A stretch of DNA of 64,000 nucleotides, taken from Dudresnaya verticillata. Its lineage: Eukaryota. Under the pieces are notes generated by a model. It saw only the letters and a program-made list of their open reading frames with translations. It ran no database searches and was not told the origin of the DNA. Shown piece after piece: positions 712-51,240 of the stretch (positions are counted from its first letter, which is position 1; the number at the start of each line of letters is the position of its first letter). Both the position numbers and the translations under genes were made by a program. The stretch is taken from the NCBI GenBank assembly GCA_977862235.1, contig OZ374558.1, positions 1,674,001-1,738,000 of the forward strand. Direction: 5' to 3'.

Positions 712-1386
712 TGTGATGAAGTGAGCCGTGGCGCGCATGCGGCACGCCGACGACGAGCCAACCGTAACGGGTGATGTGGCAATACGCCACGATGATGATC
801 TGGCAACGTGTAACCGTCTCGGATGTTGTGCGCATTGCTATAAGCTGGTACGCATTGCTGTACATCAGTGTAGCGCACCAACCGTAGCGGAGTATTTGTA
901 GTATTTATTCTTTATTTTTAGTGAGTATCTGTGCAGTTTGTAGAGTAGCGCGCCAGCCAATGAGAATGCTGCGCAAGTCCTTTTCGGAGATTGGGACCAG
1001 CAGGGCCGAATCCACCATGGGTCCAGACCACTAGGGTCTGGCCCGAAGGGACCGGACGGCTCGGTGCCACCCTGACTTGTATATCAGGGCGGCACCACAG
1101 CGGCTCCTAAGGTAAACGGGTAAGCAACCTTAGCCCAATCCTTTACGGTTTTCCCCGCGCCGAGCCCGTCGCGGTCTACCACCACCACCGTTACGGAGTC
1201 CGTCCCGGCACTTGTACCACCCCCTCGTCTGTTGATTCCCAATATCCGTCTCTGTTAGCCGCTCGCTGTTCTCCCGTTTCGGTGCGAACTTCTCTAACAC
1301 CCCGTGGAGGTAGTGTTGCTCTCGTCCGTTAAGGAAATTCAGGCCAGCTGTCCGTCTCGGAGTTCGTGGGTTTTCACGACACCACA
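712..1386 (+). repeat. E1 5' LTR (675 bp)
   Basis: TGTGATG...CACCACA; direct repeat of 11410-12029. Confidence 0.93.
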
Positions 1387-1391
1387 TCTTT

Positions 1392-1409
1392 TGGTCTCTG
1401 GACCTAGAA
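1392..1409 (+). promoter_or_regulatory. E1 primer-binding site (tRNA-Tyr-like)
   Basis: TGGTCTCTGGACCTAGAA just after the 5' LTR; 16/18 identical to the E2 PBS. Confidence 0.75.
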
Positions 1410-1534
1410 CACCGTCACGGTTGGAAGAAGCAGCCGTCGAAATCCGCTACGGTAGGAATTCGGCTGTACCGACAACCCGTTACGGAATATTGGATAGACA
1501 AGCAAGAACAACCGTTGTGTTCCGTTAAGGTATC

Positions 1535-4011
1535 ATGCAGAACGAAGAACACGCAGACCCTCCCGTTACGGAACCTAAAGCGGGTGACACTACCCCCGCT
1601 GCGCGCAGTCTGCGCAGTGAAGGAGGTGAAATCCGTTCCGGAGTGGAGAACCCAGAAGACACCTAAAGGGTGCTGCTGGTAAAGCTCCCCGTTCCCGTGT
1701 CGGATCAGACGCCTCGAAGAAGGCAGCTCCGCAACCCAAGCCGGAATCCCATCGGGTCCACTGGGTCCTGTCGGAGGTCCTTCCTAGAGTGTTAGAGCAT
1801 CTCCGATTGGAAGTACAACCTGGAATGTTAAAAGAGGTGGAGATATCCCTCTCGGAAACTGTTCCGTCGTTGGTTAATTCCTACCTTGTGCAGCACCTTC
1901 CTCGGATAGTGCAAGCTTTGATCCTACAGGAAAAGGTGGCCGCCGAGCTCGAGAGCCAGATTGCTCCCTGCATGGCAAGGCCTCCCGCTACGGAAGCTTT
2001 CACTGAGCAACCACCGTTACGGAATGAATTCCCGGTCGAGGGAAGAACGCAGCAGCCGCAACAACCCCCCTTTATGGGAGTGCAGCCGGGCACAGTACCC
2101 TCTGGGCCACTGCCACCGGCTCCCGTAACGGATTCTCAACATCAACACGCCCCTACGGGACCAACACACACTCAGCCACCGTTACAGTATTCTCCTGGAC
2201 ACGTAGATGTGCCTACGCCAGGGCGCTATCAGCAAGAGCGCTATACCGTTCCGGTTCGATCAGGTGGAGGCAGCGACCATCTCAGCGATGCGTCCAGCTC
2301 ACCCCATCCGAGTCGGAGGACCGGTCGAGGTCGGCATAAACGAGATGCCCGACACTCCCGCTCTGACCCTCCCCGTCGGTCGCACATGGGCGACCACACC
2401 CAGCGACGACGCCCCCAATCCTGTATGGAATCCAATGAGAGAAGCTCAGGGGATAGCCAACACCGCCGCAAGAGGAGAAACAGAAGATCACGGAAACGCG
2501 AAAAAAGGCATGACTCCTATTCCTCTACGGATTCAGACTCAGATAGTTCTTCCGTAACGGATAGAGAAAATAGGCACCGGGCCAGAAAACACGGTGCCAA
2601 ATCCGGAAAGGTGAAGGTAATCCGGCCGCTACATGGCAAGTTTGTCAAGGCGCTGGACTATCGCACCTACCGATTGGATAAGAGGAGCAAGACGTACGGC
2701 TCTAAGTTGTCACAGAACATGAGCCGTATATGGAAGAAACTCGACGTCCAGATGTCGTCCCATACATTCGATGGGACGGACCCTATTACCGTCTTGGTAT
2801 TTCTCGCTAAGTTACGTGGCGGTTGTAACATCAACGGCATCGCCGAAGGGGTTGCCGTCTGGTGCTTCCAGTTTTCCTTAAAGGCCAGGCCGAAGCCCTT
2901 CTACAGGCTAGGATTGCTGGAGGTACCATGGCGGTTGACGTAGAGCAGGCCGAGATGCTCCGCACATATTCCGATGTGGTGAACTTTTTGTTGAGAACCT
3001 ACGCTACGGATGAAGTGATTTCCGAATCCTATACGGATGTCAGCAACTTCAGGAAAACATCCGCCATGGCTGAAGAGCAGTTCTTGAACCAGCTCTGGGC
3101 CAAGGTTCTCCGTTGCGGTACAGTATTTTCCGATCGGGCATTGAAGTCACTGTTCGTTGAAGGGCTCCTACCGGGCACTCGTCAACAGATGAGAAATTAT
3201 TCAGCAACTCATTACCAGTTGGATTATCAGGCCATCACTCGCTATGCGACTGGCCTGGGTCAGTCCCATCGGGCAGCTCGACGCCAAACCGTTCCGTCTC
3301 ACGTCTTTGATGGGCGCACTAAAGCACGCCCGTCTAAGGTGTTATCGCTGGATTCCGTCTCGGATGTACACTATGATCCGCAAGCAGATCGTTCCGTTAC
3401 GGATGCTCAAGTCTTAGCTGTCGAGGGAGGCCACGGTGCCGCTACGGGAACGAGCACGGGGGTTACCTTTTCCATCCCGTACTCCTCTCCCCCGCAAAGC
3501 GTCCACCCTACTCCGCCGAGGATGCCACGCGCGCAATGGCCCCCCTATGGTGGATCTGGCTCGGCTCCTGGCCCCCAACAGCAGCCGAGTCACCGTTACG
3601 GAAATAATAACCACGATGGGCGAGGACAGCAGCAACCAGCACCTCCATTACGGGATGAGTCGGATCCTCGGGTCCGACGCCTTTACGGAAATGGTAACTG
3701 TCGCATCTGCCTTTCGCCAGAGCACGTTGTTTGGCCATGGATACATGACTCCGATCGGGTTAGGCTTATGGAAGAGCGAGAGAGCACAACTTCCAGAAGC
3801 ACTACCCTGTAGGCCGCAGGTTCGTAGTAAGCACCAGTTCGAATCCACAAGGGAATCGGGGCAAGCCGCATAAGCCCCCCCGCAACGGAATGCGCCGATA
3901 CTATCGGTGGAGGACCATGACGGAGGGGAACTCGCAGAATTGCGCGAGACCATCGAGGCGGATCCGACTGGTGCACCCTTGATTTCGGAAAACTCAAGGA
4001 GGGATGCGTAA
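1535..4011 (+). pseudogene. gag: E1 gag (frameshifted; ORF pieces 1789-2943 and 2862-3812)
   Basis: Homologous to E2 gag: YRTYRL, F(D/N)G(T/S)D..VL.FLA, V..LLRTYAT, RCG.V. Degenerate zinc knuckle CRICLSPEH. ATG at 1535 follows the PBS. Confidence 0.85.
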
Positions 4012-7000
4012 GGGCGCCGCCATCCCCGCCTCACAGCGTTCCACCTCTCGCAAGTGTGGACTCGCCCCGGGATCGGCGAGATACCGTTATGGAACTCCCA
4101 TTGGCTTATCAGACCAATGATCCTATCTGCTTTTTGCAACATCAAAATTATAAGATGCAAATTATCGTGGGACGGACAGATAGCGTGATGCTTCCTCTAA
4201 TCTCCGTCTTGGACTCTGGCGCTGGGCCCAATCTCATTAGTGCCAGGCGCCTTCCGCGCCAATGGCTCCCACTCATACGCCCAGCAACCAGCCCTACATT
4301 ACGGGATGCGTCAAATCGCGCTATACGCCCTCTTGGTCAGATCCAACTTTTCGTCCGTATCGGAGAGCTCCGTGCTCGCGTCCATTTTCTAGTGGTCGCG
4401 AACTTGGCGGCTCCCTGTATTTTGGGAACTACCTTCATCGACCGCTACGTGAAGGCAATCCTCCCTCAGTTACGGAAAGTTGTTTTTCATCATTACCCAC
4501 TGGTATCCCTTGTTGGTCAAGCCAAAATTCCGAAGACGGGTAACGCCGCAACTCTACAGCCCTCATCTTTATCCACCGCTACGGTTTCTCAGAAAATTCG
4601 TTTAGCAAGATCTACCCTTATTCCCCCTATGCCTCAAACCTCCGTAACGGTTAATACCCCACGGGTGGGTTATGCGTTCTAAAAAATCATCCTAAGCCGG
4701 CTTTTAAGCACCTTACGTTAATGGCTAAGGTATTATGGATGTTGTACCTAACAAACCGTTTCGGATCTGGGTCTCTAATTTTTCTAACAAGCCGGTACGG
4801 TTGCCCAAATATGCTGTCGTGGGCCTTGCTACTGCTGCCCCTTTCTGCTATTTTTACCGTTGACGGTATACCTCCATTTAAGGAGAGGGAGGAATTATTC
4901 AATCATTCAATTCTAACCTTACCTCCGAAAAGGCCAGCAGCATCTCCCCTCACGACAATGAAGTACGAAACCCGTAACGGAAACTACAAATACTACCGAC
5001 TGGAAGGATCAAGTCCAGATCGGTACAGAAGAAGCATCGCTCCGTAAACGGATTTTAACCCTACTCGAAGAATATAAGTCGATGTGGAGTGGCGATCTTG
5101 GCAACATTACAGCTGCCAAGCACCGCATCGAGTTAACTCCCGGAGCTAAGCCCGTATATCAAGCCCCATACCGTGCCGGACATAAGCAGTGAGATATCGA
5201 AAAGACAGAGATCGATCGCATGCCCGCTAAGGTAATTGAACCAGCCTCATCGGAGTAGACCAGCCCTGTGGTTTTCGTTCCAAAAAAGGACGGCACCATG
5301 CGGTTCTGTGTTGACTATAGAAGGGTCAATTCCGTAACGGTTAGGGACTCATATCCCTTGCCCAGGATGGATGAGTGCATAGATTCCCTTGGGGAAGCTA
5401 CTGTATTTACCACCCTGGATTTCAATAGCGGATATTGCCAAGTCGAGATTCCGGAAGAGGAAAGGGACAAAACTACCTTCACTAGCCATTTTGGCTTATA
5501 CCGTTTTCGGAGAATGCCATTCGGATTGAAAAATGCAGCGGCAACCTTCCAACGGGCAGTGGATATAATCCTTTCTACGGTTAAATGGCAATTTGCCCCC
5601 GTCTACCTAGACGATGTAATTGTCTACTCAAAAACCGTTACGGAACATTTCCACCACCTGAAGGAAGTCATTACGCTTTTACGATCCGCTGGGGTAACGT
5701 TGAAATTGTCAAAGTGTGACTTCTTCAACGCGTCTGTACAATACCTGGGGCATGTTATGAGTCCCGGAAAATTGGAAGTGGATAATAGGAATATCCAATC
5801 CGTTAAGGTCGCGAAGCCGCCGACTAACCAAACGGGATTGCGATCCTTCTTGGGAATGTGCAACGTGTATCATCGCTTTGTACCCAAATTCGCTCGGATT
5901 TCAGCACCGCTGAATAAGAATACCGGCAAGGGCTCACCATTTGAGTTTGGAATATTATCCGATACGGAATACGAAGCCTTCGAGGAACTGAAGAGACGCC
6001 TTATCTCTCCACCTATATTGGCTCTACCCCGCCACGGATATAAATATACGTTGGACACTGACGCATTTGACCATCAAGTCGGCTGTGTCCTTCTGCAGGA
6101 ACAACCGAATGGCGATCACCTCCCTATTGGATACTGGAGCCGAAGCCTGACCGATGCGGAGAAATTTTATACTACAACCGAAAAGGAATGCTTAGCCGTG
6201 GTCTAGAGTATGTTGACACTCCGACCCTACCTTTACGGTGACAAGTTTATTCTCCGAAGGATCACGATTCCCTGCGGTGGATCCTGAACCTCGCAGACTC
6301 ATCTTGCCGCCTAGCCAGGTGGAGGCTCCGCCTATCGGAATTTGAATTCGAGGTGCAATACCGTCCAGGAATTAAGCATCAACTCGCCGATGGGATGTCG
6401 CGACTCCGAACGGATGGCGGTGACAATAGACCTTTGGATGAAGAGATACCCCGCTTCGTCGCCGAAAATACCGTCGACGGATTATATTAGCATGGAGTTT
6501 ATTTAACCGATTGGGCTACATCACAAGAAACCGCTACGGAAAATAACGTAACATGCGCCGTGGCGCCCGCCAGTGGGAGTGCATCCGCCTCCCCTGACAA
6601 GCCCGACGTAATACCGTCACGGTTTACTGTAATCCAAGAATCCGACGTTAAGGATGAGACAATTACCAGGGAGGAGTTCCTTGAAGCGCAAGCCCGAGAC
6701 CCTTTCTGTCGTCTCAAAGCCGATACGGTAGGCTCACCTGGATCACAGTTTAGCTATGACCGTAACGGATTCTTGGTACGCAAGTCCCAATTGGATGGCG
6801 CTCTACAGAAGGTGGTGCCAAGCAAACTCCGTGGACGGGTATTGTATTTATCTCACTACACCCTGATGTCGGGTCACCCAGGCGGAATTAAGATGTATTA
6901 TACTCTCCGACAGGATTATTATTGGCCTCATATGGCCAAGGATGTATTTGAATCCGTTCGGACATGTCGCTCCTGCGTGAAGACGAAGGGAACCGCTTTC

Positions 7001-8325
7001 GGAATCAAAGGTTTATGAAACTTTTCCCCGCTAGTGGACCTTTGGAGTTTGTCGCTATCGACACTCTCGGGCCACTTCCGAAGACAAAACGGGGTTATGT
7101 CTACGTTCTGGTAATAACCGATCGGTTCTCTAAGCTGACGCGCTGTATTCCGTTACGGACAACAACAGCCGTTGTGGTGGCGAACGCCTTTCTGGACTTT
7201 TGGGTTTATGCGTATGGCGCACCCCAATTTGTCCTAACCGATAACGGACCGCAGTTTACTGCTACGTTCTTTGACTCGGTGTGTTCCTTACTCGGAGTCA
7301 GGCGCCTATTAACCGCTGCCTACCATCCGCTGACAAATGGGCAAGCTGAGCGATTTAATAAGACAATCGCCCAGTTTTTGCGCCATTACGTTGAGGATCA
7401 TCACTCCGGTTGGTATTTGTACCTGCAACCGTTGACGTATGCGTACAACATGCAGGTACACCGTATTACGGAAACAACGCCATTTGATTTGGTGCTGACA
7501 CGCCACCCATCGGACATGGTTGTACGAGGGGCTCCTGTCGAGCATCAAGAAACCGTTACGGAAGGGCGTATGATCCCAGTGTTACAGAAGCGGAGCACCA
7601 TGCGCCGTTTACGGTATGCGCTCCAGGCAGCGCGCATTAAGCAGACAGTAGCCCAGCAAAAATCCAAGGCACTGTTTGACCGTAAGGTGCGCTTTAGGCC
7701 CATAATCCGTAGCGGAGATCAAGTCTATGTCGACCGGCCGCCCCATAACTTGCGTCCTGCCGAACGCCGTGAGCGGGACCGATTGGAAGGTAAACCGGAT
7801 GATGTGGGTGAGGTGGCTCAGGAAATGAAGAAACTTCTTCCGCGAGCCACGGGGCCTTATGAAGTGGAATCCGCAACGGAACATGTGGTTACAATCCGCA
7901 AGGAAGGGGTATTGATCCCAGTAAGCATCGATCGCATCACGAAAGTTCTGATCGGAGTTGCGGTTCAGCCGGCGCCCTTAACAGTGCCGCCTGTCGCGCC
8001 ATCAACCGTTTACGGTGAAGTAATGCCACATCCAGAAGGTACGGCAGTAACGCCTACTCCGTCAACGGGCATTACACCCTCCGTAGCGGAACCCTTACAA
8101 GCCGATACGGAATATGTGATCGACAAGATTGTCGGTCACCGCGACGAACCTACCGGGATGACCTATAGAGTCCGCTGGTATGGTTACCCTCCGGATCAGG
8201 ACACTTTTGAGCCCGCGGAGGAGTTGCCGCAGAATTTCATCTACCGGTATTGCAAGCAAAAGAAAAAGACCTCCGGTAAGGGTAAGCCACGGCGACGTGC
8301 TAATCCAACACGTCACTCACCGTAA
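3987..8325 (+). pseudogene. pol: E1 pol: aspartic protease, RT, RNase H, integrase, chromodomain (several stops and frameshifts)
   Basis: Protease LDSGAGPNLI. RT RFCVDYR, MPFGLKNA, YLDD. RNase H TDA, EKECLAVV. Integrase H..GH..C..C, TDNGPQF, GQAERFN, GPY. Chromodomain YVIDKIVGHR...YRVRWYGY...TFEP (~8113-8260). Confidence 0.95.
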
Positions 8326-8425
8326 CGGACAGCTGGAGTGTTGGGGTGTGAGAACACACAATGTTTATCGCAAGCTAAGGTCGAGGCATAATGGAGACCG
8401 TTAAGGAGATCGTCGAACTGTAACT

Positions 8426-11271
8426 CTAAGAGTTACGGCGACGCCGCTTCGGAGCAGGGGCAACTATATCTTCCTCGTTGCTCCCCTGACCCGTTCGTAA
8501 GCCGGGTTCCCCACTGGGATCAGATTGGAATACGCGCTGCGTATTGTCTCCCAAGACGCGAATCGCATTATCCATGCGCCGACGCTGACGACGGACCACT
8601 GCGCGGAGATGAATCACCTTTTCCATCAGCCCCTCCGCTAAGGTTAGCGTTTCCTGAACGGATCATGGCAATGGGAAGCGCTGCGTACGGCAAATGCCCC
8701 GTAGCGCCTGTGACCCACTTTTGGTAGCGGCTAAATGAGCCGGAACCGTAACGGGGGGATCCTCATCTTCTTGAAACTCTACCTGCGGGGAGATCTACGG
8801 CTTATCCCTAACCCCGGCTTCGATTGAATGCTCCGTTGAGGAAACCACCAATACGGATGGTCCCGACTCGGGTGAAGGTACGTCCTTCCGCAGCGGTGGA
8901 TTCGTGTCCTTCTCTGTCGAGGCGATATATCTTTTCCGTAACGGTTCGGGACTTGACGCGGGGACCGAGGGCTTGTCACCAGTCGCCCCAACACTTGGGC
9001 GCTTTGCAGCCACTTCCGATACGGTGATCGGTGCCTCACTCACCGCTGGTGTGGGAGTGGGCGCCAACAGCGGAACACTTGGCGGGGGCGGTTCGGCGGC
9101 TGCAGGCATTTGCGTCGCAGGAGACAGTGCCGCCGGCACAGTATCCGGCGCTACTTCCGAAACGGTCTGCTCCTTTGAGGCCCCCTTCTCGGATGGTGCC
9201 GCAGGCTTGGGCACCGCCATAGTAGACGCAACCACGCCTATAGGCGTTGGGGCCTTATCCGATACGGGAGTAGTATTCTCACGATCTACATCGCGCGACG
9301 TGGGTGTAGCGACCACCGGAAGGATTGGAGCGGATTTCTTCTCGATACCCGCTGCCATTGATGCGACGGGCATGACCTCCTCCTGTTCTTCCAAGAAGGG
9401 GTCAGCTTCTTGCTGCCTCACCATAACGGAATCGCGCGGGTCGATTGTACGCGAACGCCCCGCTGCCTCCTGACAGCCCCCAATCTTCAGCCCCGTCCAA
9501 ACCATCACGGTACGCATCCCTTGGTGCTTGGTGAGGCGCATAGCCCCGATGGGCCTGCACCTCTAAGGCCAACCATTCCGGACGCGGATCTTCTCGATGA
9601 AGGAAATATGGCTCACCCACTCCGGGCCTAAGCGGGGGCACCGATAGGAAACGGTCCTCATCCCAACTATACCCCAAGAAGCCCGGAGTGCGTAGCCAAT
9701 CCTGCTCTCCGTGTACGGATAAAAGACGCTCAACCTGATGGAGAGGGTACGCCGACCCCGTCACCAAATCGGCTACGCCGACTTGGCGAATTAGGGCGAT
9801 CACCGTTACGGGAAGTTGAAAAATACGGCCACAGTATCCTCCGGGCAGGTCATCCTCATCCCGTGGGAAGCATCGCCAGTCGGCTAACTTGGTATTATAC
9901 CGTACTCCGTAATAGGCCACCTGGAGCCACGAGAAGAGCACCAGCATGGCCCATTCCGATCGGAAGATGCGCCACAGTACATCGAGCTGATCTTGATTCG
10001 GGGGGCGCTCTCCGTTCGGACGTTTGTGATTCCACTCCCGTTCGGTGAGTAGGTCCGCCGAAAAGTATGCCACGACGGAAGGCGTGGGGACAGACAACCA
10101 ACGGGTCACCTCATAACGATCCTACCATGACGGAGCTGTAAGGTACAATTCACGACGCACCAGATACGGAAGATGGAAGAACTCCTTAGTGTTTCAAGTA
10201 TGCAGGATTGGCGAGCCAACTTGCATTCCGTCACGGGAGCGAGTTCGCAAACGGTGTTCCGTCGCGGCATCGTCCTTCCACCCATCGGCATAGCGGAACC
10301 AATATACCGACTGGTCATAGGGGCGGTCAAAGCAAATGAATTGCACTCCGACCGGCGCACCCCGGAGACGGAAACCTTTGGCCAACAGGTGACTGACCTT
10401 TGCGGTATATCCTACCTCCCCATGGCAGCGATACCACAACAAATCCGAAACGGTAGAGGTCAGCGCTTGACAATAGCCATGCACCCATCGGCTTTGCCAT
10501 ACAAATTCTCTCCGATTCGGAACAACGCCAATGCGTTGATTCGCCTTAGGGCTGCGCCATGACGGCCTTGTACCTTCTTGCTTCCACGACGGTTGGATAC
10601 TTCTCGATGAAGTAGTCCACCGTCATCGGGGGCTTAATCTTCGCCCTCTCCGCATCGGTTCTAGCCGGGCGCCCCGCGCGATGATCAAAGTGGTGCCCCG
10701 GCCAATAACCACTCGGGGCAGGAACCTCTCCGTCACGGGTATGCACCACCGGCCACCAAGGCCCTGGTGCAGGTGGATTGATTTGCGGGGGCCCACGCAT
10801 CCGTCTCGGTGTACTTGATGAAGGATGTAGACTAGCCACCATCCTACGACTCGGCGTCGATACCGGTGTCGATGGTGCCCGTAACGGAATGACCGGTAGG
10901 TCTGCCAAGCTGAGCTCCTCGCCACCACGACGGAATGCATCATCACGGTCCTTGGTTGGCGCCTCTCCGTCACGGTGGGTCGCTGCACTCCCTGGTAGCG
11001 CGGTCCTTGTGGCTGCGCTCGCAGCAAACCGATTCGGATCATAGGCCGACCACCCTCGGCTCGCTGATGGAGCCGGCGAAGGTTCCGTCACGGCAACGCT
11101 CGTACGACCGCCCATTGCGGGTCGCGTCGCTGCCGCCGAGGAAGAAGCCGGCGCTTGAGTCGAAGCATCCGTAACGGTTAGCGCGCCCTGCGCCCTAGTC
11201 GTGGATGCCGCGCGGGAACGCCGTGTCGGTTGAAAGGGCGACGGTGAGCGCTTGGTTTTCTCCCCTGACAT
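8426..11271 (-). pseudogene. E1 antisense extra ORF (disrupted), unknown protein: low-complexity N-terminus, conserved globular core, Ala/Pro/Thr-rich tail, C-terminal basic NLS-like PAPKRRRR
   Basis: Collinear minus-strand ORF pieces 10546-11271 (ATG 11271), 10194-10484, 9402-10109 (same frame as 10194-10484, with two in-frame stops), 8795-9541 and 8426-8626. The core aligns by eye with the E2 antisense ORF. Confidence 0.75.
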
Positions 11272-11396
11272 GGTGGGAGAAGCGCGCAAGAAGAGGAAGG
11301 ACTGATGAGAACACTTCCGTATCGGTTGTGTGTGTTCGTGGGTGGGGAAGCGATAGCGATCCGCTACGGTGGGCGCCCGAGGACGTGGCGCCATTT

Positions 11397-11407
11397 AAGG
11401 AGGGGGG
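11397..11407 (+). promoter_or_regulatory. E1 polypurine tract
   Basis: AAGGAGGGGGG, 2 nt before the 3' LTR. Confidence 0.85.
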
Positions 11408-11409
11408 TC

Positions 11410-12029
11410 TGTGGTGAAGTGAGCAGTAGCGCGCATGCGGCACGCCGACGGCGAGCCAGCCGTAACGGGTGATGTGGCAATACACCGCGCTGATGATCTG
11501 GCAACGTGTAACCGTCTCGGATGTTGTGCGCATTGCTGTACGCTGGTCCGCATTGCTGTACAGCAGTGTAGCGCACCAACCGTAGCGGAGTATTTGTAGT
11601 ATTTATTCTTTATTTTTAGTGAGTATCTGTGCAGTGTGTAGAGTAGCGCGCCAGCCAATGAGAATGCTGCGCAAGTCCTTTTCGGAGATTGGGACCAGCA
11701 GGGCCGATTCCACCATGGGTCCAGACCACTAGGGTCTGGCCCCCACGGACCGGACGGCTCGGTGCCACCCTGACTTGTATATCAGGGCGGCACCATAGCG
11801 GCTCCTAAGGCAAACGGGTAAGCAACCTTAGCCCAATCCTGTACGGTTTTCCCCGCACCGAGCCCGTTGCGGTCTACCACCACCACCGTTACGGAGTCCG
11901 TCCCGGCACTTGTACCACCCCCTCGTCTGTTGCTTCCTACCACCCCGTGGAGGTAGTGTTGCTCTCGTCCGTTAAGGAAAGTCAGGCCAGCTGTCCGTCT
12001 CGGAGTTCGTGGGTTTTCACTACACCACT
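11410..12029 (+). repeat. E1 3' LTR (620 bp; ~55 bp shorter than the 5' LTR near 11935)
   Basis: TGTGGTG...CACCACT; direct repeat of 712-1386 with scattered substitutions and one internal deletion. Confidence 0.93.
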
Positions 12030-12511: not shown

Positions 12512-13421
12512 TGTGGTGCAAAACGTCTGACACGATAGACCGCCGAGCAGTTCGTGGCTCGGTGGGTAGCTGCGCCCTTGGCGAGAGGTGGTCCCGCCGT
12601 GGGCGACTTGGTGGTAGAGCAAAGGAACACGCCTTGGGCGGACTGTAGACGACCGAGGCGGAAGGTGTGAAGGAAGGGAAAAGGAAACAGAAAGGGAACA
12701 CGTCAAGGACGATGGTAGACGTGGAAGCACGGGAGGTAGACGCTTAGCCGTGGGCAGCGGTAGGATACGCGCGTGCGGAACGGGGAAGTCTGGACCAAGG
12801 CCGGCTTGCCCGGGCGTTTACTGTTACGTCTGGGACGGCTTACCTAAGTATAGTACGGCGGTGCGGCGGCGGCGGTGCGTGTGCGTAGCGCGGGAACTCG
12901 GGACACGTGTCGTCCCGAGGCGCGTCTGACAGACCACCGGTTGCATGCAGCCGCGCGTCTGACAGGTTGCCGTGCAACCCCCTGTATAGGTGCTTACACA
13001 CACACGTGGACGCGTGGGCCTTACAGCCGTGCGTGCGCGCGCACTGTAGAGCGTGCGCATTAGATCTAATCCGATACTTGTCTGATCCCGATCCCATCCG
13101 GATCGGGCCAGCAATGCGAATACCCGCAGCATTACAGACGCGTATCTTACAGCTTAGGCGATCCGGATAACCAATCTGGATACCGGATCCGGATCCCATC
13201 TGGATCCGTATTACAGTGCCCCGGGGCGCCACGTCGGGCCATCACCGTACAGTGCCCGCGTGGCGCGCGGCGCGCAGTGTGCGCGCGCGCCCCAGTGAGC
13301 CGGCGATGACGTGTTCGCGTGCCAACGGCGGTGGTGAGCGCCGGTGGCGGGTTCTCCGTCGGTCGACGTATTTGGTCCGCCCACTTTCAGCGAAAAAGAG
13401 CTCACCTCCCCTTGCACCACA
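12512..13421 (-). repeat. E2 3' LTR (910 bp)
   Basis: TGTGGTGCA...TGCACCACA termini; repeat of 24870-25779 and 51328-52236. Confidence 0.95.
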
Positions 13422-13424
13422 CGA

Positions 13425-13433
13425 CCCCCCTCC
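13425..13433 (-). promoter_or_regulatory. E2 polypurine tract
   Basis: Minus strand GGAGGGGGG, 3 nt before the 3' LTR. Confidence 0.8.
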
Positions 13434-13857
13434 AAAACGCGAACACGACCCGACCCTCAACCTGCTGCCGTGCGCTCTCCCGTCGCGTGCCTGCCAACTT
13501 CCGCGCCTTGCGAGCGAGTCCCCGCGCCTTCGCGTATTGTGTCGGTGCGCCCGCGTTTACGCTGCCCCGACATCACCGCCCGTGGCGCATAACGTTGTCG
13601 TTGACGTCTATCGTATATCCCTCGCCTGGGGCGTTGCAACTTAATCGTCATCGGCGTCGTTTGCTTTTGGCATCGCCATTGGCGCAGCAGCTGAACGTCG
13701 TTGACGTGGGTTTCGTTTCCTCGCCTAAGGCCTTACAACAGTAATCGCCTTCGACGCACGCTTCTTGAAGCTTTCGCCAGTGGCGCAGAACACGAGTCGT
13801 CTTTGACGTTTGTACAAGCATCACCTTTGGCGTTAACATATTCTCGTCGTTGACATC

Positions 13858-16158
13858 ATGCCGATGTTCAATGGCATGCAGGTGGCGGCGCCCTCGGCTG
13901 CGCCGGTGTACGCTTCGCCGATCGACTTCGTCGGAAAGAATCCTCGCGATCACGCGCATTTCTTCGCGCGGGCCCCCTGGTTTGAGCAGGAGGCCCTGCG
14001 CGAGGAAGAATTGGTTGCCCATCACGCTACTAGCGGTTTCTTGCCGGGGGCCTGCCCCTCGGCGTCGTCTGGACGTTGGAATGGGAGTTACGCTGCGCCG
14101 TTCCTGCGGAATGGCTTTGGGTGCGAGCGGGACAGTCGCGTGCGGACGTCCACGCGCAGTTCGTCTCAGACGTGTATCGTCGCTTCACGCGGTATCCGGG
14201 GTCGACGTTAACGCCGCCCTTGTTCAATTATGATGCGGGACAGTATCGCACAGCCGGCGAAGCCGAATATGGTGCTCGTCTTGGGACGTTATCGCTCAAA
14301 CACGTTAGTGTGTCGATTGAGCCTCGCGTGTTGGGAGAGGCCTACCTGTTAGGCGTACGCTTGAAAGCGGATTTTCGTTACTTGCATCGTACGGGTACGT
14401 TCTTTTGGGAGCGTTGTATCCGGTGGGAGTGCGAGACGCGTCGCCGAAAGGGCGTATTCGTACCTTACCAGGACATGCAGGTCGATCGCATTGAGCGTAG
14501 TAAGTTACCGTTTTGTTTCGTGAAGGTACTGCCTGTATGGCGAGAGTTTGAGATATGCGAGGGTTTCTCCGTAGAGCTTCCTCCGTGTGTCACGTATCGA
14601 GCTGATGACCGACCCCTATTCAAGGTATTGGATCGTGTTTTACACGGAGTGGGTCGCCAATGTGGTGTATGCGTGGTTATGGGAGGTGTATGACACCTTC
14701 CGTATGTACCACTTGCCTCCGCGTGTGGTGGCTCAGCTTGGCAGCCTCGACTTGGTAGAAATATTTGGCGGGTCCCGGAACGCCGAGGAGTTCTGGAACC
14801 TGCGCGCTGTGGCGGATGAGATCGACTGGAACGACCCGGCAATGGTGCCGTATGCGAACAACCGCCGTAAGGCGAACCGTCCGCGCTTCGCGATGAGTCG
14901 GACTCACTCCGTCTGTGGCGATTGGGTCCATTATAACCCGTGGACTAAGCGTCGTACGACGAAGAACATTGCGGAGCGCCATCGCAAAACGGACCGCTTC
15001 ACCCCGGGTAATCACCCGCGTGGTTTGCGTAAGAGCTGCGACTTTGTCGGTGATTTTCCTCCGCATCTGAGCGCCTTAATGGCCGAGGAGGATGCGTTTA
15101 ACGCCGATGGCGGACCGGAGAACCCGTCTGGGACGGACATTGCTGCGCCTATGGCGGTTGAGTCGACTGCCGAGCCTGCGCCCGCGTCTTCGGCTTTGCC
15201 CGGAGGCGCTGTCGGTGGCGGTGGAGTGCCAGCTGGCCTGCCAGCTGTTGCTCCTCTGGACCTTGCGGCTCCCGTCGCTGACGATGATGGTGATGCCGTT
15301 ATGGCGACGCCAATATTGGAGTCGGCTCCGCCGACCGTGACGCCTCAAGGCAAAGCATCAAACATCGCAGACGGTTCTGGGGGTCCAGCTTCGGTGCCGG
15401 TTCGGACCGAAGAACAGCGCCGCACCGTGCTTGCGTTATTGCAAGCGGCAGGCGTCGCTACTAGCGGTCTGAGCGGCTCACCCACTGAGTGGATGAGCCA
15501 ATCTTTGTCGGCTGGGGTCCCACCTCAGGGTGGGCCCACGCCGAAGTCGACTAGTGTCATAGGTTCTGCGTCGAAGGACGGTGTGGCAGAGAAGCCTTCG
15601 TCGCCTAAGGCGAATGGTCCGGCGTCTAAAGACGTGAGTATGACTGTACCGCCTGTAGCGAGCGAAGCGAATGCCGATATAGCGTCGTTGACGGTTCCAA
15701 AGGGGCCAGGGGCTCCTGCGTCATTGACTGGTGTTGGTTGGTTGGTTAACAGCGCCGAAGGCGAGTGAAGAAGCGACGCCAATCAAGGCGGTTTCTGAAC
15801 TGACGCCAAAGGCGGTCGACGAGTCGTTGATTACGCTTAAAGCGGATGGGGCTATGCCCGCGCCTAAGGCGAACGATGGCTTGAGCTCTGCACCCGTGGC
15901 GGTTGTTATTGCTTCATCGCCTTTGGCGGATATTGTCGCGACGACGTCGAAGGCGATTGATGAGTCGCCCATCTCGCCTGCGGCGCCTGTTATAGTCACT
16001 CCGGCGGTTGCGGTGGCAAGGCCTTTGCGGTCCGCCCGGCTCCTGCCGTGAGTGTACCGTCGAGGACGGAGGACGACCTCTATGAAGAGGCGTTGCGTGA
16101 GTCCGCCGAAGGCGCCGTGGCTGTACCACCCGATTCGTCTGCGACGAAAGAGTCTTGA
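13858..16158 (+). pseudogene. E2 antisense extra ORF (frameshifted), homologous to the E1 antisense ORF
   Basis: Collinear ORF pieces 13858-14211, 14076-14693, 14587-15768 and 15731-16051. A globular Trp/Tyr-rich core is followed by an Ala/Pro/Ser-rich tail. Confidence 0.78.
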
Positions 16159-17462
16159 TGTCGTTTGAGCAAAGGATAGCGGACGCGAGGTGCGTATTGT
16201 GTTGCCCTTCGGCTCCCTTGCGGGACCGATGAGCGGGGTATTCCCCTTCGTCTTTGACGATTAATGTAGCTGTAGTGGTCGATTGCTAGGGCGTGGGGTT
16301 GTCCCCATTTGTTTTTAGCCCAGTAAACTTCGGCCATTGTCAGCGTCTTTGTGTGTCACGTTTCGCGTTGGCCCTTAGGGTGTGACTTGTGATCCACTTT
16401 CGACTTTGCGTCGTGTTCTTGGTTGCCCACTACAGTAACGTTGGCGTTTGGTGCCATTGGCCTTAGCCGTGCGTTGGCACTTGGCTCTGTTTGCCCAGTA
16501 GGGTCCGCTGTAGTAGCGTTGTTCTTTGTGTTTCACGCGCGGCGTTGGCGTATTTCCGCTTACTTAGCGTTTTGTTTTTGTAGTTCATGTGTCGCACTGC
16601 GACTTGGGCGTGGTTTGTTGGGTCACTGCACCTTGGGCGTGGTTTTTCGGCGTCCTCGACGACGGTCGCGAAGGCGGTGAGGTAGGTTTGGCGCCTCGGC
16701 GTTGCCGCCCCTTTCGTCTTCGACGTTTCTCGTTGTGGGTAGGGTAGAGTTGTCGGTCGCGCTCGCGCAACTGCGCGGCGGCCGCAGGCAGCGGCGGAGT
16801 CGTTGGCGATTTGTTGGCGCGTCGTGCACGGAACCCGCAGCACCTGCGTCTTCGACCACCTTCCCCCCCCTTCGGGGGTGGGTTTGTCGGTGCGCCCCTT
16901 CTCGGAGAGTTACGTCGGAGACGTTCGATGGGTCTGGCGCGCGAGACCGTGGGCGGCAGGGTGGCGGTCCCAGGTACTTGGCCGTAGGACGAGGCACGTC
17001 TCGACGTCGGAGACGGTTGTTGTGCGCTGCCACTTTGCGCCTGTCGTCGCTGGTGCTCGTAGCACCTGCTCAGCCACTTGGCATAATTGCGTTCGTCGTG
17101 CGTTGACGGCGGGGTGGTGCGCGCTGCCGTGTTTGGAAATTAAAATTGGACCCATGTCTGCCTCCTATTACCCGAGGGGCGCCGGTGGCGGATCTTGATT
17201 TGCAATCTGGATCACTGTCAACAGCGCACCCATCCAGAGGTTCCGTATGGGGGCTGCTGCGAGGTGGCGTGCGCGAGGCTGTCTATGACGCAACGACTTG
17301 CGTCCGCGTTCGTCCATGGCGTGCACACGTGGTTGGCGCTGTCGCTCTGGCGACCGCGTCCACAGGCTATGGGTTGAGCTTCCGCGCCTTTGGTGATCGT
17401 AGGTCGAGCACGCGGTCTCGATCGTCCGTCCATTCGCTTCCAGCGGTATTTCCGGATTAGGG

Positions 17463-20400
17463 TTAGCCGCGCTGCGCGTCGTCGACGTTTGGCGGCAGCT
17501 GCGTACGTTTTCGACGGTGGTATCGTGTGACGTGGGAGCGCGGCAAACTGGAGACTGGCTCCCAGGTGTTCGCTGAAGCGGGGTATCCAAACCACTTGAC
17601 GCGGTAGAGGATCTCATCACCATCCGCCTATGCGTGCGACTCTATGCGTTCAATCACGTATTATTTTCCGCTCACAGCGTTCGGCTTGGACATGGGCCTG
17701 TCCAGCGCCTTTGGCGGTTTGTCTCGTTGCGTGATGGGCGTCTGTTCCAGCTCGGCGAAGCGTACTCGACGAGTTGATCGCCGGAGGCGTTGGCCCTGGG
17801 CCTGGGACGCTCGATCAGCGGTCAGTGGATTGTTGCGTCTTGAGACGAGTTCATCGCTTGCAGCGCCTTGCTTCGTGCTTGCACGGTTAACGTCTTCGAT
17901 ATCGGATGCGCTTTCAGCGGAGTCATTGTTCTCATTCGGCGGTGCCGTAGCGACGTGTTCCAAACTGGTGCGAACCCCTGGGGTACTGTCGTCGTTGGAG
18001 ACGGATTGTGAAGCGCGGTCGTTGGGATCGGCGGCGAAGGGCGAAAGCTCTGCCAACCCACGGCTGCGTGACGCGGTGATCGTACGCTCTTGCGGATCTG
18101 CCGCAGTATGCGAAGTGTCTGCGTCCTCTTCCGGGTCCGCTGGTGGCGTGCTTGGGGTAGTCGTCCCTTCGTCGTGTGACGTGGGGGCGACTGCTCCCTG
18201 CTCCTCAGGCGGGCCTGGTGGTACGACGATTGGAGGGGCCGCCTGACCGGTGGGGTCGGCGCCCAGACCACGCGGTCTCGGGACAAACGTTCCCGCTCAT
18301 CACATCCCTTGTCGACGGTTACTGTTTCGTTATCAACGTGAGTTACCCGGTATGGTCCGTCCGCCACTGGCGCCAGCTTATACTTACGCTCTGCGCGATC
18401 CGTGCTCCCGCCTCGGGCGAAGTATTCCTTACGTACGAATACGAAGTCGCCTACGGCGATTGTTTCCTTCGATTTCCTTAAGCGGGTATCGAAGTTTCGT
18501 TTGTAACGTGCTTGAGTTTTCTCTAACGACGCTTTAGCGGTTCCCATCAGTGCGGCCAGCCAGGTTCGCCACTTGGTGTAGTATTGCCCCGCGGTGGGTA
18601 CGCTTTCGAGCGACGGTTCCGCTTCGAGCGACAATGGTCGTGGTGGCTTCGACAGCACCAATTCAAACGGAGCGAGATGCGTGGACGAATGCAACTTTGT
18701 GTTGTATGCGAACGTCAAGGCATCCGTGAACAGGTCCCAGTCTCTCGGATGATCCGCAACGTAGTGACGCCGCGAGGCCAGGATAGTTCGATTGAATCGT
18801 TCTACCTGGCCATTGTATTGCGGATGGTACGTCGTGGTGAAGAGATTCTCCACTCTCAAAAGACGGCAGATATCCTGAAACAGCTTAGCCACGAACTGTG
18901 GTCCGTTATCGGACAACAGTTTCTTGGGGGGGCCGTACAAGAAGACCCAATGTCGTACAAATGCCTTAGCGATTTCCAATGCCGTAATACTACGCAGTAG
19001 GACCGTCCGGACCAGCTTCGAGAAGCGGTCCACAATGACGAGTAGGAACTTGTTTCCTCGCTTCGTGCGTATGAGTTCGCCCAGGATGTCGATCGATACG
19101 AACTCGAGAGGCTCGGTTGCCGGGAACAACTTCAATTGCTTGGTGTTCTTTCGCAGCAATACGCGATTCTTAGCGCAAGTTACGCAGTTGCGGACGGTTG
19201 CATAGCAGTCCACTGGCATCGATGGCCAATAGTATTCGCGTCGAAGCGTATGATACAACTTACGCCCCTGGGTGCCCTGCCAACTTGGCGTGGTGCCGGA
19301 GGTGGAGTAAGCGAGCGCGTAACGCGTAGGGTACGACCACTTGCGGACGGACTTCCACTGTTCGGACCAACAGGCCCTGTTCATCCGTTGCGAACGGTAA
19401 TATGATTCCGTCATCCAGACGTTTCTTGATATCGTTACAGTACTTGTCATCGCCTTGGGCGTGTACCAACTCCTCATGCGTCACTTGACGAAGGAATACC
19501 TCATCCGCCGGTGGCGTGTTGTTGATCAACACTTGGTCGAACTCTTCGAACTCTCGTTCGGCGAAGTCGACCTCGCCTTCGGCGTCTGAAAGATCGTCCT
19601 GTGACGTTTGATGGCCGTCTTCGACGTAGCTTCCGTGATAGCACGGTATATCATCGTCAATGGGCTCGACGGTTTCTCCCTTCGTCTGTAGACGCGAAAG
19701 GGCATCTGCCTGGGTATTCAGGTACCCCTTTTTGTACTTCACGACAAAGTCGAACTCGAGAAGGCGAAGGCGCCACCGCATTAACCGTCCAGAGGGGTCG
19801 CTGATTTCCATCAGCCACCTCAACCACGAATGGTCCGTATGGACTGTGAACGACTCCATCTGGAGGTAAGGTCGCAGCGTCATGACGGACCATACTACTG
19901 CGAGGCACTCCTTTTCGGAGACCGAGTAGTTACGCTCTGGAGCGGTGATCGAGCGGGACCAGAAGCCGAGGGGCTTACGTTCCCCGTCGGGCTGCGTCTG
20001 AAAGAGAGCGCAGCCGACCTGATACTCGCTTGCGTCACAATCGACAGAATAGGGGAGACCCTGCTGTGGTAGCGCCAGTATAGGCGGATGAGTCACGGCC
20101 TCGACGAGCGTGCTGAACGCTTTGGCTTGTGTCTCATCAAACGGTTGTAACCGGAAGTCCTGTTCCTTCCTCAGCAACTTGTTGAGGGGGGCAGCGACAT
20201 GCGCGTATCGCGAGACGAACCGTCTGTAGACGTTACAAAGACCGAGGAAACTCCGTAGCTCCTTCTGATCCCGTGGATGCTTGGCTTCGCGTAGCGCGGC
20301 AGTGACAGTTCGGTCAACTTCTAACCGTCCTGGACGTATGACGTGTCCTACGCAGTTGACGGTCGGGGTGAAGAAATCACACTTGGTCAACTTCGGAGTC

Positions 20401-22187
20401 ACCCCGGCGCGGTGCAATGTCGAAAGGATCTCTTCAACATGACGGAAGTGACTGTCGATGTCGCTGGAGAAGATTATTACGTCATCGAGGTAGACGAGGC
20501 ACGAACGCCACTTGTAACCAGCGAGCAGTATGTCCAACGTTCGTTGAAACGTAGCGGGTGCGTTCGTGAGACCGAATGGCATACGCTTATAGCGGAACAG
20601 TCCGGCGTGGCACGTGAACGCAGTCTTATCGCGGTCTCGCGGATTGATCGGCACTTGCCAGTACCCACTGTTACAGTCTAGGGTGGTGAAAACGTTTGCT
20701 TCCCCTAGACTGTCGATGCATTCGTCGATACGCGGCAGCGGGTACGTGTCCCGTATGGTTACTGCGTTTAAACGACGGTAGTCCACGCAAAAGCGGAGGG
20801 TCCCGTCCTTCTTGGGGGCGAAGACCACTGGTGACGCCCACGGCGATTGTGCGGATTGGATAACCCCTTGACGCAGCATGCGTTCCACTTCCGCTTGAGC
20901 GAGTTGTCTTTGCTTCGGCCCCGCTCGGTAGGGCGGGGACGATATTGGTCTAGAGCCGGGAAGCAAGTCGATGTAGTGCTCCGTGGTTGAGATTTCTCCC
21001 AACGAACCGTCCCACATAGACGAATACTTGCGCAACATCTCCTCAAGCCGGCCTTGATGCTCGGCGGGGAGATGTCCCAGGTCCAAATCGTCTACTGACG
21101 GAGGTTTGGCAGTGGTTGCCTCGATAGACTTCGTGAAAGTATCCGGCTGTGCCGCAGTGTTATCATTCGTTTGAAAACGGAAATCTTGGTTTGTCTTCTC
21201 TTCCTCGGCTTGTTCCTCGGTGAGGCCCAAAACATCGGCTAGACTTACGTGACTGGGGAACACTGCTGTCGGATGTGGTAACGCCGTCGCGACGACTTGG
21301 GCCTTGGCCAGCGCCTGCGGGCGGGGAGAGAAGTTGGCAACCAGAATGCGAAACGCTTTTAGCGGCTCCACTTGAGCAATACCGTTCGTAACGGCCAGAA
21401 CTTGTTTGTCGTACAGCTTTCCGAACGGTTGAATCGTGATGATGCCGGCGCGCTCGGTGGTCACCGATACCCATTGCTGCGCCTTAGGCGGGATGATCGC
21501 GCGCTCGGCGACTCGGATCTTGGGTAACGTCCTCCCTTCGGCCTTGCCGTATTCCTGTTCCGTTGGTAACGGAGGGTACGACGGGGGTCGGCGCAGCGGG
21601 CGGCGCGTTATAGGGACGCGAGTCCCGTCATCCAATTCAACCTCGCGACTTCGCGGATATATTGCTTCGACGAAGCGGTCGCAAAAGTCGCAGCCGAGTA
21701 TAACCGGCGCAGCGAGTCGTTCGCAAACGATCAGTTCCAACTTGACGACTCTCCGTCCTAGACGAACGACCAGGTCGATGGTGCCTCTTGTCTGGATCGC
21801 CTTATTGTTTGCGTCGGCTATGACGGGGAGGCTCTTTGCCACGATGCGCGATTGCGCTTCTAGCGGAATGTCGTCAATGCGAATGAATTTCGGACCAGCC
21901 CCCGTGTCGAGAACAGTGAGTTTACGTGCCAAGGTACTAACGGTTGCGCCCAAATCGGCGTACACCTTATAGTTCCTCTTGGCCATTACGAACAACTGCC
22001 CCCGCGTTTGGGGGGGCTGGTACCTTCGCCATGGGTGTTTTAATGACGTCTGCGACGACTCTATCCGCCCGTTGGCGTCTTTGGTAACTAACTTCGGGCC
22101 CTCCTTCCGTGTCAGCACCTGAGGCCTAGGCCTCTCGTCGTGGTGCGACACCCCAGTGTCAGGAGTTGGTGCCCGAGTTAGTTTTTC
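17463..22187 (-). pseudogene. pol: E2 pol: protease, RT, RNase H (open 19260-22151), integrase (frameshift ~19260), chromodomain (17463-17660, with stops)
   Basis: LDTGAGP; RFCVDYRRLN, MPFGLTNAP, YLDD; DCDAS, EKECLAVV; SDNGPQF, GQVERFN, GPY. Chromodomain YVIERIESHA*ADGDEILYRVKWFGYPASANTWEP translated by hand. Confidence 0.95.
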
Positions 22188-24742: not shown

Positions 24743-24849
24743 GATACAATCGTAGAGTTGCTTGAACGTCGTGGACGATTAGCGACAAACGTCTGAAGAC
24801 GGAGGGTCGGACGTCGCACGACGGAGTAACTCGTTGAAACGTAGCACAA

Positions 24850-24867
24850 TTCTAGGTCGGGAGACCA
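24850..24867 (-). promoter_or_regulatory. E2 primer-binding site (tRNA-Tyr-like)
   Basis: Minus strand TGGTCTCCCGACCTAGAA, 2 nt from the 5' LTR. The complement reads TT-CTAGG-TCGGGAG-A-CCA, the shape of a tRNA 3' end. Confidence 0.82.
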
Positions 24868-24869
24868 GA

Positions 24870-25779
24870 TGTGGTGCAAAACGTCTGAGACGATAGACCG
24901 CCGAGCAGTTCGGGGCTCGGTGGGTAGCTGCGCCCTTGGCGAGAGGTGGTCCCGCCGTGGGCGACTTGGTGGTAGAGCAAAGGAACACGCCTTGGGCGGA
25001 CTGTAGACGCCCGAGGCGGAAGGTGTGAAGGAAGGGAAAAGGAAACAGAAAGGGAACACGTCAAGGACGATGGTAGACGTGGAAGCACGGGAGGTAGACG
25101 CTTTGCCGTAGGCAGCGGTAGGATACGCGCGTGCGGAACGGGGAGGTCTGGACCAAGGCCGGCTTGCCCGGGCGTTTACTGTTACGTCTGGGACGGCTTA
25201 CCTAAGTATAGTACGGCGGTGCGGCGGCGGCGGTGCGTGTGCGTAGTGCGGGAACTCGGGACACGTGTCGTCCCGAGGCGCGTCTGACAGATCACCGGTT
25301 GCATGCAGCCGCGCGCCTGACAGGTTGCCGTGCAACCCCCTGTATAGGTGCTTACACACACACGTGGACGCGTGGGCCTTTCAGCCGTGCGTGCGCGCGC
25401 ACTGTAGAGCGTGCGCCTTGGATCTAATCCGATACTTGTCTGATCCCGATCCCATCCGGATCGGGCCAGCAATGCGAATACCCGCAGCCTTACAGGCGCG
25501 TATCTTACAGCTTAGGCGATCCGGATAACCAATCTGGATACCGGATCCGGATCCCATCTGGATCCGTATTACAGTGCCCCGGGGCGCCACGTCGGGCTAT
25601 CACCGTACATTGCCCGTGTGGCGCGCGGCGCGCAATGTGCGCGCGCGCCCCAGTGAGCCGTCGATGACGTGTTCGCGCGCCAACGGCGGTGGTGAGCGCC
25701 GGTGGCGGGTTCTCCGTCGGTCGACGTATTTGGTCGACCCGCTTTCAGCGAAAAAGGGCTCGCCTCCCCTTGCACCACA
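24870..25779 (-). repeat. E2 5' LTR (910 bp)
   Basis: Direct repeat of 12512-13421 with TG...CA termini. Confidence 0.95.
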
Positions 25780-26589
25780 GTCCCTATCCCACTGTGTCGG
25801 CTTGTGTCTCTGATTTTGTGAGAGAGTTCTCGAGGCTCTCGTCCGCTGTTGTCTTGGTCCGTGAGCTTGCTGAGAGGTTGAGTGTTGTGCGTGGTGACTC
25901 TCGTTAAGTCAGGACCTCGTTGGCCTAGGGGAGCAGCCTCCAGTAAGATCCAGAACCTTGACACGGTTGGGCGTAGTTCCATTCCTGCAAGAGACTGGAC
26001 CTGTTCGTGTGGTGAACACTCGTTTTGAGTTAGTACCCATAAGGTGGACGTCTCGTAAGGATTGCACACTTCGTGTCTGTGTGCGCACGACACGAAAGGG
26101 CTGCTGAAAGACGCATTTCACCCGGAGAATCATATCCGGGGGCCAGGAGTCCGACTCCTAGGGGTGACTAGGTAGAACCTGGTGCCAGAACATCCCGCGT
26201 CAAAAAGACGTTCAACTATCAAGAATCAACTTTTCAACTTCAAATTTCAACTTTTCTTCTTCAGTCCAGGTGATCCCATCATCACCTGAGAGTTTCATTA
26301 CTCCAAGCGTGGGAGCTACTTGGCAAAGTGTGCTCCGCTTGTGACTGTATTATATTACCGACGGTGTTGCACGTTGAGGGACGGAGGTACCGACGCTTTG
26401 CCTAATGGAAGCGGTGGCGACGCACACACTAGCGGGAAGGGGAATTCGGCTACCAAGGCCATAAAGGGGGAAAACAAAAGGGGATACATGTCAAAGACGT
26501 ACATTGACGCGGAAGCGCGATCGTTGCAACGCGTAGCCAACGTCGGTAGCGGCAGTGACGCTAACGAGCGAAGGTGCGAAGTGTGAAGG

Positions 26590-51220: not shown

Positions 51221-51240
51221 GGAGTGGTGATCGAGGACTA

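Follow-up and report, generated by a model that had tools for sequence, protein, structure and literature searches.

A conserved antisense gene between pol and the 3' long terminal repeat in two decayed Ty3/gypsy retrotransposons of Dudresnaya verticillata

The antisense reading frames

The window analysed here is a stretch of 64,000 nucleotides from Dudresnaya verticillata (GenBank assembly GCA_977862235.1, contig OZ374558.1, positions 1,674,001 to 1,738,000, forward strand), and all coordinates refer to it. It carries two neighbouring Ty3/gypsy retrotransposons with long terminal repeats (LTRs), placed tail to tail, E1 (712-12029, plus strand) and E2 (12512-25779, minus strand). The gag-pol frames are broken in both, and both are therefore decayed copies. 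Each element also holds a broken antisense open reading frame (ORF) between pol and the 3' LTR. Given their homology, the fixed position and strand, the selection seen in relatives and a broad agreement of trees, these two ORFs are almost certainly decayed copies of an accessory gene that occurs throughout the lineage.

The antisense ORF of E1 was located by ORF and profile searches at 10622-9402 on the minus strand, with the conserved domain matching a profile at 10463-9684. Two in-frame stops (10196-10194 and 10124-10122) interrupt the frame, two insertions give it about 40 residues more than its counterpart in E2, and the 5' end stated here is provisional. A low-complexity stretch rich in A, P, S and T in another frame (8795-9562, minus strand), recognised from its translation and codon-position bias, is likely the C-terminal tail of the same gene, judging by the tails of intact homologs.

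In E2 the same searches gave an ORF on the plus strand (14034-15768), composed of the domain at 14034-15033 followed by a tail rich in A, P, S and G. It is read in two pieces, 14034-14693 and 14575-15768, with a change of frame near 14,600. A likely N-terminal piece lies in another frame at 13837-14211 (plus strand) and matches columns 2-31 of the profile weakly (E 0.012). No additional copy of the domain was found elsewhere in the 64-kb window. A first-pass annotation of this DNA had reported antisense ORFs in both elements and a conserved domain common to them; the ORFs lie where it placed them.

Homology of the two reading frames

Direct comparison of the two proteins was carried out against shuffled controls. 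The C-terminal pieces align with a score of 60 and the read-through pair, with X at the breaks, with a score of 67; neither score was reached in 2000 shuffles (Gumbel p 3.1e-4 and 2.7e-4, respectively). The N-terminal pieces alone are not significant, their score being reached by 418 of 2000 shuffles. BLASTP aligned the two proteins at 25% identity (E 3e-4), and no DNA match longer than 21 nt was found. Taken alone the pair is of modest significance and suggestive of homology, and word-based protein searches with E1 or E2 singly returned no relatives.

Profiles were built from relatives outside the window. Related loci were collected in a metagenome scan with an integrase alignment, from which we used the best 80 of at least 562 confirmed loci. 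One of them, L125, carries an intact antisense frame of 782 codons (L125:7371-9716) that E2 matches with an E of 1e-21, and weaker antisense frames in other loci are matched by both E1 and E2. An initial iterative search drifted into the low-complexity tails and lost E1, and because of this the profile was rebuilt on the core. The resulting 121-column core profile, made from 32 locus pieces with the window sequence excluded, scores E1 at 24.9 bits and E2 at 48.3 bits. Among 500 shuffles of each, the highest scores reported are 8.4 and 4.9, and a set of 9,843 reversed decoys gave nothing better than an E of 0.48. A 355-column profile of L125 and 140 of 150 listed database proteins gives 41.4 bits for E1 and 266 bits for E2, with best shuffles of 6.9 and 4.3 and reversed sequences below 0. 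Both unbroken pieces of E1 were recovered separately by this profile (E 0.0015 and 0.004; best decoy 1.5), and the N-terminal region of E1 is homologous too, matching columns 76-211. The closest database proteins are at most 28% identical to E1 and at most 38% to E2, and thus the profiles contain no self-copy of either.

By these profile scores the homology of the two ORFs is confirmed at the level of sequence comparison, and chance similarity is ruled out for the homology by the 121- and 355-column scores. The wider reading that the similarity is a chance or compositional artefact of non-functional ORFs draws on the direct p value of only about 3e-4, on both copies being broken and on the fruitless word searches with single sequences. 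We regard it as hardly credible in view of the independent profiles, the decoys, the fixed position in relatives, the dN/dS values and the confident structural model (pLDDT 93) described below.

The first-pass annotation had further listed eight collinear blocks between the two proteins. When judged by eye from the 355-column profile alignments, blocks 5-8 are in register and block 4 roughly so, but blocks 1-3 are displaced by about 18, 12 and 7 positions. The shared domain itself is longer than had been noted, covering about 350 residues (14034-15033 in E2, 10463-9684 in E1).

Position and distribution of relatives

The antisense domain was found downstream of the integrase in 36 of 47 loci having at least 2 kb of downstream DNA, and in 25 of 31 having at least 3 kb; many of these loci helped to build the profile, so that their being recruited follows from its design, but they had not been chosen for the strand or the position of the match. 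All downstream matches are antisense and lie roughly 0.9-3.7 kb from the integrase core. Two plus-strand matches upstream of the integrase, in L154 and L180, probably come from neighbouring elements. In a further locus (L128:10516-11642, minus strand), about 3.4 kb from the integrase, two antisense pieces score weakly against the profile (E 0.18 and 2.2) and may represent a broken homolog that has diverged further.

HMMER, run in full with L125 as the query, returned 384 representatives of clusters at 50% identity with E<=0.001, including 174 at 1e-10, mostly matching residues 275-620. The locus alignment found 69 more proteins. Among viral contigs no relative was obtained from pattern scans with E1, E2, the reverse transcriptase (RT) of E2 or the alignment A5; the E1 integrase gave two 26-residue matches there (E 4e-4). 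Prokaryote genomes gave no match with alignment A5, and since pattern scans are insensitive this is a weak test of absence outside eukaryotes.

Selection and co-inheritance

The ratio of nonsynonymous to synonymous substitution rates (dN/dS) was calculated for 35 pairs of relatives with at least 60% identity, of which the 32 with dS between 0.1 and 1.5 were counted. The median in the antisense frame is 0.255 (range 0.12-0.56), compared with 0.12 for the integrase (25 pairs). Three pairs dropped for a dS below 0.1 have values of 1.02, 0.40 and 0.54. The ratio is lower in the antisense frame than in the mirror frame in 34 of the 35 pairs, and the other four frames mostly give values of 1 or more. 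The purifying selection that had been proposed for E1 and E2 is thus seen in their relatives, from which all of these values come.

Trees of the core and of the integrase were built from 22 loci together with E1 and E2. They share their main clades (Mantel rho 0.69, reached in 0 of 2000 permutations), the core tree is 2.8 times longer than the integrase tree, and L125 is the nearest tested relative of E2 in both. It follows that the antisense gene has for the most part been passed on together with the element, and that it changes more quickly than the integrase.

The predicted protein

In 51 full-length homologs the domain is 331-374 residues long, and the A/P/S/G-rich tails that flank it vary in length. 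An AlphaFold model based on 141 sequences (361 residues) is mostly helical, with a predicted local distance difference test score (pLDDT) of 93.3 and a predicted template modelling score of 0.92; a model of the N-terminal piece of E2 folded alone had a pLDDT of 36 and was discarded. The product is therefore described here as a predicted soluble, globular domain of about 350 residues between low-complexity tails. Arginine makes up 11% of the domain, tryptophan 3.6% and tyrosine 4.7%. The conserved columns include 10 basic, 25 aromatic and 12 acidic ones and no conserved Cys or His. Basic clusters resembling a nuclear localisation signal (NLS) occur in 21 of the 51 homologs, which were not de-duplicated, against 11.5 expected.

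A subset of the homologs ends in a second motif of about 35 residues, undetected in E1 and E2. It was seen in P0073, P0078, P0079, P0086, L125:7371-7520 and others, and by eye it recalls helix-loop-helix folds of the SAP/LEM type. In L125 and three homologs scanned, this motif had no Pfam match at E<=10.

The domain had been called unrecognised in the first-pass annotation, and no search has given it a name. Pfam returned no match for 43 proteins (E<=0.01), 24 cores (E<=1) or 8 proteins (E<=10), and in these scans neither TRP28 (PF04195), the plant mobile domain nor any other known accessory domain of transposable elements (TE) was matched in sequence. NCBIfam, PHROGs and Rfam gave nothing at cut-off, and sequence searches of PDB reached E values of 0.062 and 0.15 at best. 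Foldseek found no match at E<=0.001 in PDB or BFVD (best E 2.0 and 1.3), and ESM Atlas gave no usable match for E1 or L125. VIA-align, run on 48,161 chains, had a best Z of 2.2 with a root-mean-square deviation of 6.5 over 142 residues, where unmatched models typically have 7-8; a low Z is alone no proof of a new fold, and the fold searches used the whole domain. The fold of the plant mobile domain, VANC or MAIN/MAIL1 was not among the matches in libraries that hold no predicted cellular structures. Compared with PDB chains and BFVD, the modelled domain likely has a new fold.

A new-fold enzyme modifying nucleic acid or chromatin, as proposed for accessory genes of red algal Plavaka elements, would suit the size of 350 residues and several charged positions that hardly vary (Arg 88, Glu 92, Arg 133, Glu 149 and Glu 190 in the model numbering), and predicted modifying enzymes are reported on red algal transposons (10.1101/2025.02.11.637652). 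We nevertheless find this unlikely, as conserved Cys and His are lacking, no column is invariant among the 141 or among 24 sequences, and only a core of about 120 residues is recognisable across subfamilies, rich in Pro, Gly, Trp and Leu and structural in appearance.

The gene occupies the position of env, and the protein might accordingly help the element to move between cells, as an env or movement-protein analogue. The central helix of the model (residues 217-240) is fairly hydrophobic and 3 of the 51 homologs exceed a hydropathy of 1.8 over 19 residues. The best such window stays below 1.8 in the other 48, however, with 1.58 in E1 and 1.27 in E2; there is no consistent membrane-spanning segment, the central helix lies inside a confidently predicted globular domain, BFVD holds no fold match and the gene is antisense. 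Such a role is very improbable, and the earlier statement that the product is not env-like stands.

Palindrome lattices

Each element carries its own lattice of short palindromes. In E1 it consists of 30 copies of CCGTNACGG between 762 and 11894, with none in the rest of the window. There are 28 copies in 712-11409 where 0.37 are expected, and the word is part of a wider CCG-N3-CGG class with 73 sites in E1. The mean spacing is 384 bp, and LTRs, coding and non-coding DNA are occupied alike.

The lattice of E2 (12573-25707) is made of inverted repeats of 4 bp that are closed by CG and enclose a spacer of 3 nt, and extends through the LTRs, the genes and the antisense region; it is also present in a solo LTR at 51327-52236. 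Positions 13422-25779 contain 36 copies of CGCC-N3-GGCG and 30 of CGTC-N3-GACG, against about 1 expected for each. Perfect inverted repeats are formed at 123 of 256 CG..N3..CG sites, and therefore the stems covary, which suggests selection on mini-hairpins. In a separate palindrome-pair scan of viral contigs, 121 loci were returned (raw count).

Covarying repeats of this kind fit single-strand hairpins more than a duplex site. They would suit a protein whose target is RNA, either in the cytoplasm or during export, whether as a Rev-like carrier, a packaging or particle cofactor or a suppressor of RNA silencing. The Arg- and aromatic-rich chemistry fits this role equally, the tails are long and disordered, and an analogy to retroviral accessory genes is drawn in PMC7264820. 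On the other side, no RNA-binding fold was matched, the relatives have no such hairpins, and separate antisense expression would fit a regulator better than a stoichiometric part of a particle. An action on RNA is a possibility that we take seriously though with clear doubt.

Proposed role of the protein

Our preferred explanation, including the mechanism, is that the protein binds nucleic acid or chromatin as a regulator aiding expression of its own element; we advance it tentatively, at somewhat less than an even chance. Transcription of the gene would start at a separate antisense promoter, within the 3' LTR or close to it, and the protein would enter the nucleus. There it would work in trans on copies belonging to its own family, either as trans-activator or as anti-silencing factor, with the DNA or chromatin of the element as the target, either activating the element or countering silencing. 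Intact copies elsewhere in the genome may in this way serve broken ones such as E1 and E2. We infer a nuclear regulator because of the residue chemistry, the weak excess of NLS-like clusters, the evolution faster than that of the integrase and the analogy to GENE23, TRP28 and VANC.

Several observations count against this explanation or the evidence under it. The pairs behind the dN/dS values and the Mantel test lack independence, and codons were aligned in the antisense frame. E1 is placed differently in the two trees (with weak support, 0.65, in the domain tree), and 11 of the 47 loci have no match to the antisense domain. The net charge of the domain is near neutral (-12 to +11), the classical hydropathy value of 1.6 is reached in 15 of 51 homologs, none of the fold and family searches hints at a function, and binding, localisation and expression of the protein are themselves inferred. 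Finally, the palindrome lattices are the most evident candidate targets. Of the 80 related loci, 64 have the length needed for a scan; the gene is present in many of these, and none shows a lattice comparable to those of E1 and E2. In the palindrome scan log10 p is -42 for E1 and -44 for E2, where the strongest signals in relatives are words of C/G runs (-11) and a single five-copy word (-9). When any dispersed 4+4 word was allowed, including non-palindromic ones, the peak in 47 of the 80 loci was -7 against -37 and -25.

Because relatives with the gene lack lattices, a link between gene and lattice is not supported, and the gene does not need a lattice, though the two may be linked in this host. 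This bears on the idea that the protein binds the element-specific lattice as a dimer, with protein and motif co-evolving in a VANC-like self-recognition. The two domains are only about 25% alike and each element is marked by a lattice of its own across the LTRs and both coding and non-coding DNA, as this idea would have it, but the 64 tested relatives have nothing comparable, including L125, the nearest tested to E2, and the stems of E2 covary, unlike a degenerate dimer site. We consider it distinctly improbable. A bolder version is quite unlikely as well: that a whole lineage, likely of red seaweeds, has a new-fold protein recognising its own element, and that each family in this host has inscribed its whole sequence, its genes as well, with a family-specific code of palindromes or hairpins. 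This would be a counterpart of VANDAL/VANC made from unrelated parts and could be reprogrammed by swapping homologs.

Structure of the two elements and other features of the window

Both elements have TG...CA LTRs, gag-pol, the order RT-RNase H-integrase and a polypurine tract, as expected of Ty3/gypsy elements. The LTRs of E1 are direct repeats at 712-1386 (5') and 11410-12029 (3'), identical at 594 of 619 aligned bases (96%), with the polypurine tract just before the 3' LTR; the 5-bp flanks of the element agree at 4 of 5 positions. Its gag-pol (1630-8325, plus strand) lies in several broken pieces encoding a weak protease, RT, RNase H, integrase and a C-terminal chromodomain, with Pfam matches to RVT_1, RT_RNaseH, Integrase_H2C2, rve and Chromo and the protease below cut-off.

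E2 lies on the minus strand, with its 5' LTR at 24870-25779 and its 3' LTR, adjoined by a polypurine tract, at 12512-13421; they are identical at 885 of 910 bases (97%). Its gag-pol (17822-24778) encodes RT, RNase H and integrase according to a Pfam scan, and no chromodomain was matched in the integrase ORF scanned. The closest solved structures to its RT are the Ty3 chains 4ol8/7q5b. E1 and E2 are 57% identical in RT and 51% in the integrase core. Going by the Gag and zinc-finger sequences, the host is likely a red seaweed. The flanks of E2 (12512 and 25779) show no target-site duplication despite LTRs that are 97% identical, and E2 may have arisen by recombination between two insertions.

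Both elements have, immediately inside the 5' LTR, a common sequence resembling a primer site (1387-1410, plus strand, in E1; 24845-24869, minus strand, in E2), which by eye is unlike a standard tRNA 3' end. A complement for self-priming was limited to an 8-nt match in the LTR of E1, with none in that of E2. The primer-site pattern was found in 1 of 203 loci, there within an integrase.

The solo LTR of the E2 family at 51327-52236 is inverted and its flanks agree at 4 of 5 bases. It sits within an element at 49402-52236 that has a weak RT match (E 1.6e-4) and looks DIRS-like. A unit of about 8.1 kb is present in about three copies, 97-99% identical, at 32168-48016 and 57410-64000; it contains a 16-bp tandem repeat and a 447-codon minus-strand frame that by eye ends in two C2H2-like fingers (no Pfam match). 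Old LTR fragments at 45-241 and 26472-26755 are about 72% identical to the LTRs of E1 and E2, respectively.

Comparison with known systems

Antisense ORFs between pol and the 3' LTR are known from Grande, RIRE2, Retand, PvRetro13 and the fungal Boty, where their function is given as unknown (PMC7264820). GENE23 of maize Grande is described as nuclear, with its own antisense promoter (PMC7264820), and TRP28 of Retand as a predicted DNA binder reported only from flowering plants (PMC11963269). E1, E2 and 36 of 47 related loci have the antisense position between pol and 3' LTR that marks this class, aORF-3R, and the relatives also show its purifying selection (median dN/dS 0.255). With the plant members (Grande gene23, RIRE2, Retand TRP28/PF04195) the gene shares, as far as these are described, its place in a long region between pol and the 3' LTR and its occurrence across a lineage. 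Unlike in Retand, neither PF04195 nor any other Pfam family was matched in 43 proteins of the domain family, and Retand belongs to a non-chromovirus lineage whereas the E1 integrase has a chromodomain. The brtn gene of fungal Boty/BcGypsy1 is likewise an extra antisense ORF in this position, carried by a gypsy element from outside the plants (PMC7264820, 10.1101/2021.04.13.439636), a comparison made by description only.

Env and env-like ORFs of Ty3/gypsy elements also lie between pol and the 3' LTR; the gene of E1 and E2 differs in being antisense, without a consistent transmembrane segment and without a viral fold match.

VANC proteins are anti-silencing proteins encoded by the Arabidopsis VANDAL elements (PMC5735166). 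They resemble the product discussed here as TE-encoded accessory proteins with element-specific short motifs, which here are found in E1 and E2 only (PMC5735166, 10.1101/2024.04.02.587720). VANDAL elements, however, are DNA transposons, a resemblance between VANC and MAIL1/MAIN is reported (10.1101/2024.04.02.587720, PMC5735166), and the domain of E1 and E2 has no Pfam match to the plant mobile domain. The targets of VANC are described as often tandem repeats and its localisation as non-coding regions, whereas the motifs of E1 and E2 are dispersed through coding DNA and absent in relatives. A target motif accompanying the gene across the lineage, as in VANC, was thus not found, the lattices being confined to E1 and E2.

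Accessory genes of mobile elements are also described from red algae, on the DNA transposons of the Bostrychia paper, where PAG1 of the Plavaka genes PAG1-3 has no known domain; the word 'antisense' is absent from its main text (10.1101/2025.02.11.637652). Besides the type of element, the difference lies in the methylase/SET and ParB/2OG-oxygenase domains given for PAG2/PAG3, none of which were seen here, and PAG1 was compared by description only.

No paper on this antisense gene was found in a literature search whose coverage lay outside Repbase, most subscription journals and bioRxiv supplements. The layout is known and the protein family within it is apparently undescribed, being set apart from PAG1 and brtn by their descriptions only. 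The origin and function of antisense extra genes in LTR retrotransposons are treated as an open question (PMC7264820, PMC11963269), to which the present gene contributes a family that is large and old (384 clusters at 50% identity), seems independent of the others and has intact members in nature. Because its model is predicted with very high confidence and has no match among solved folds, the family lends itself to structural and binding work. If the protein is indeed a regulator or an anti-silencing factor, unrelated proteins would have come to occupy this antisense position time and again in gypsy lineages of distant eukaryotes, and the family would provide a handle on transposon silencing in a poorly studied group of hosts.

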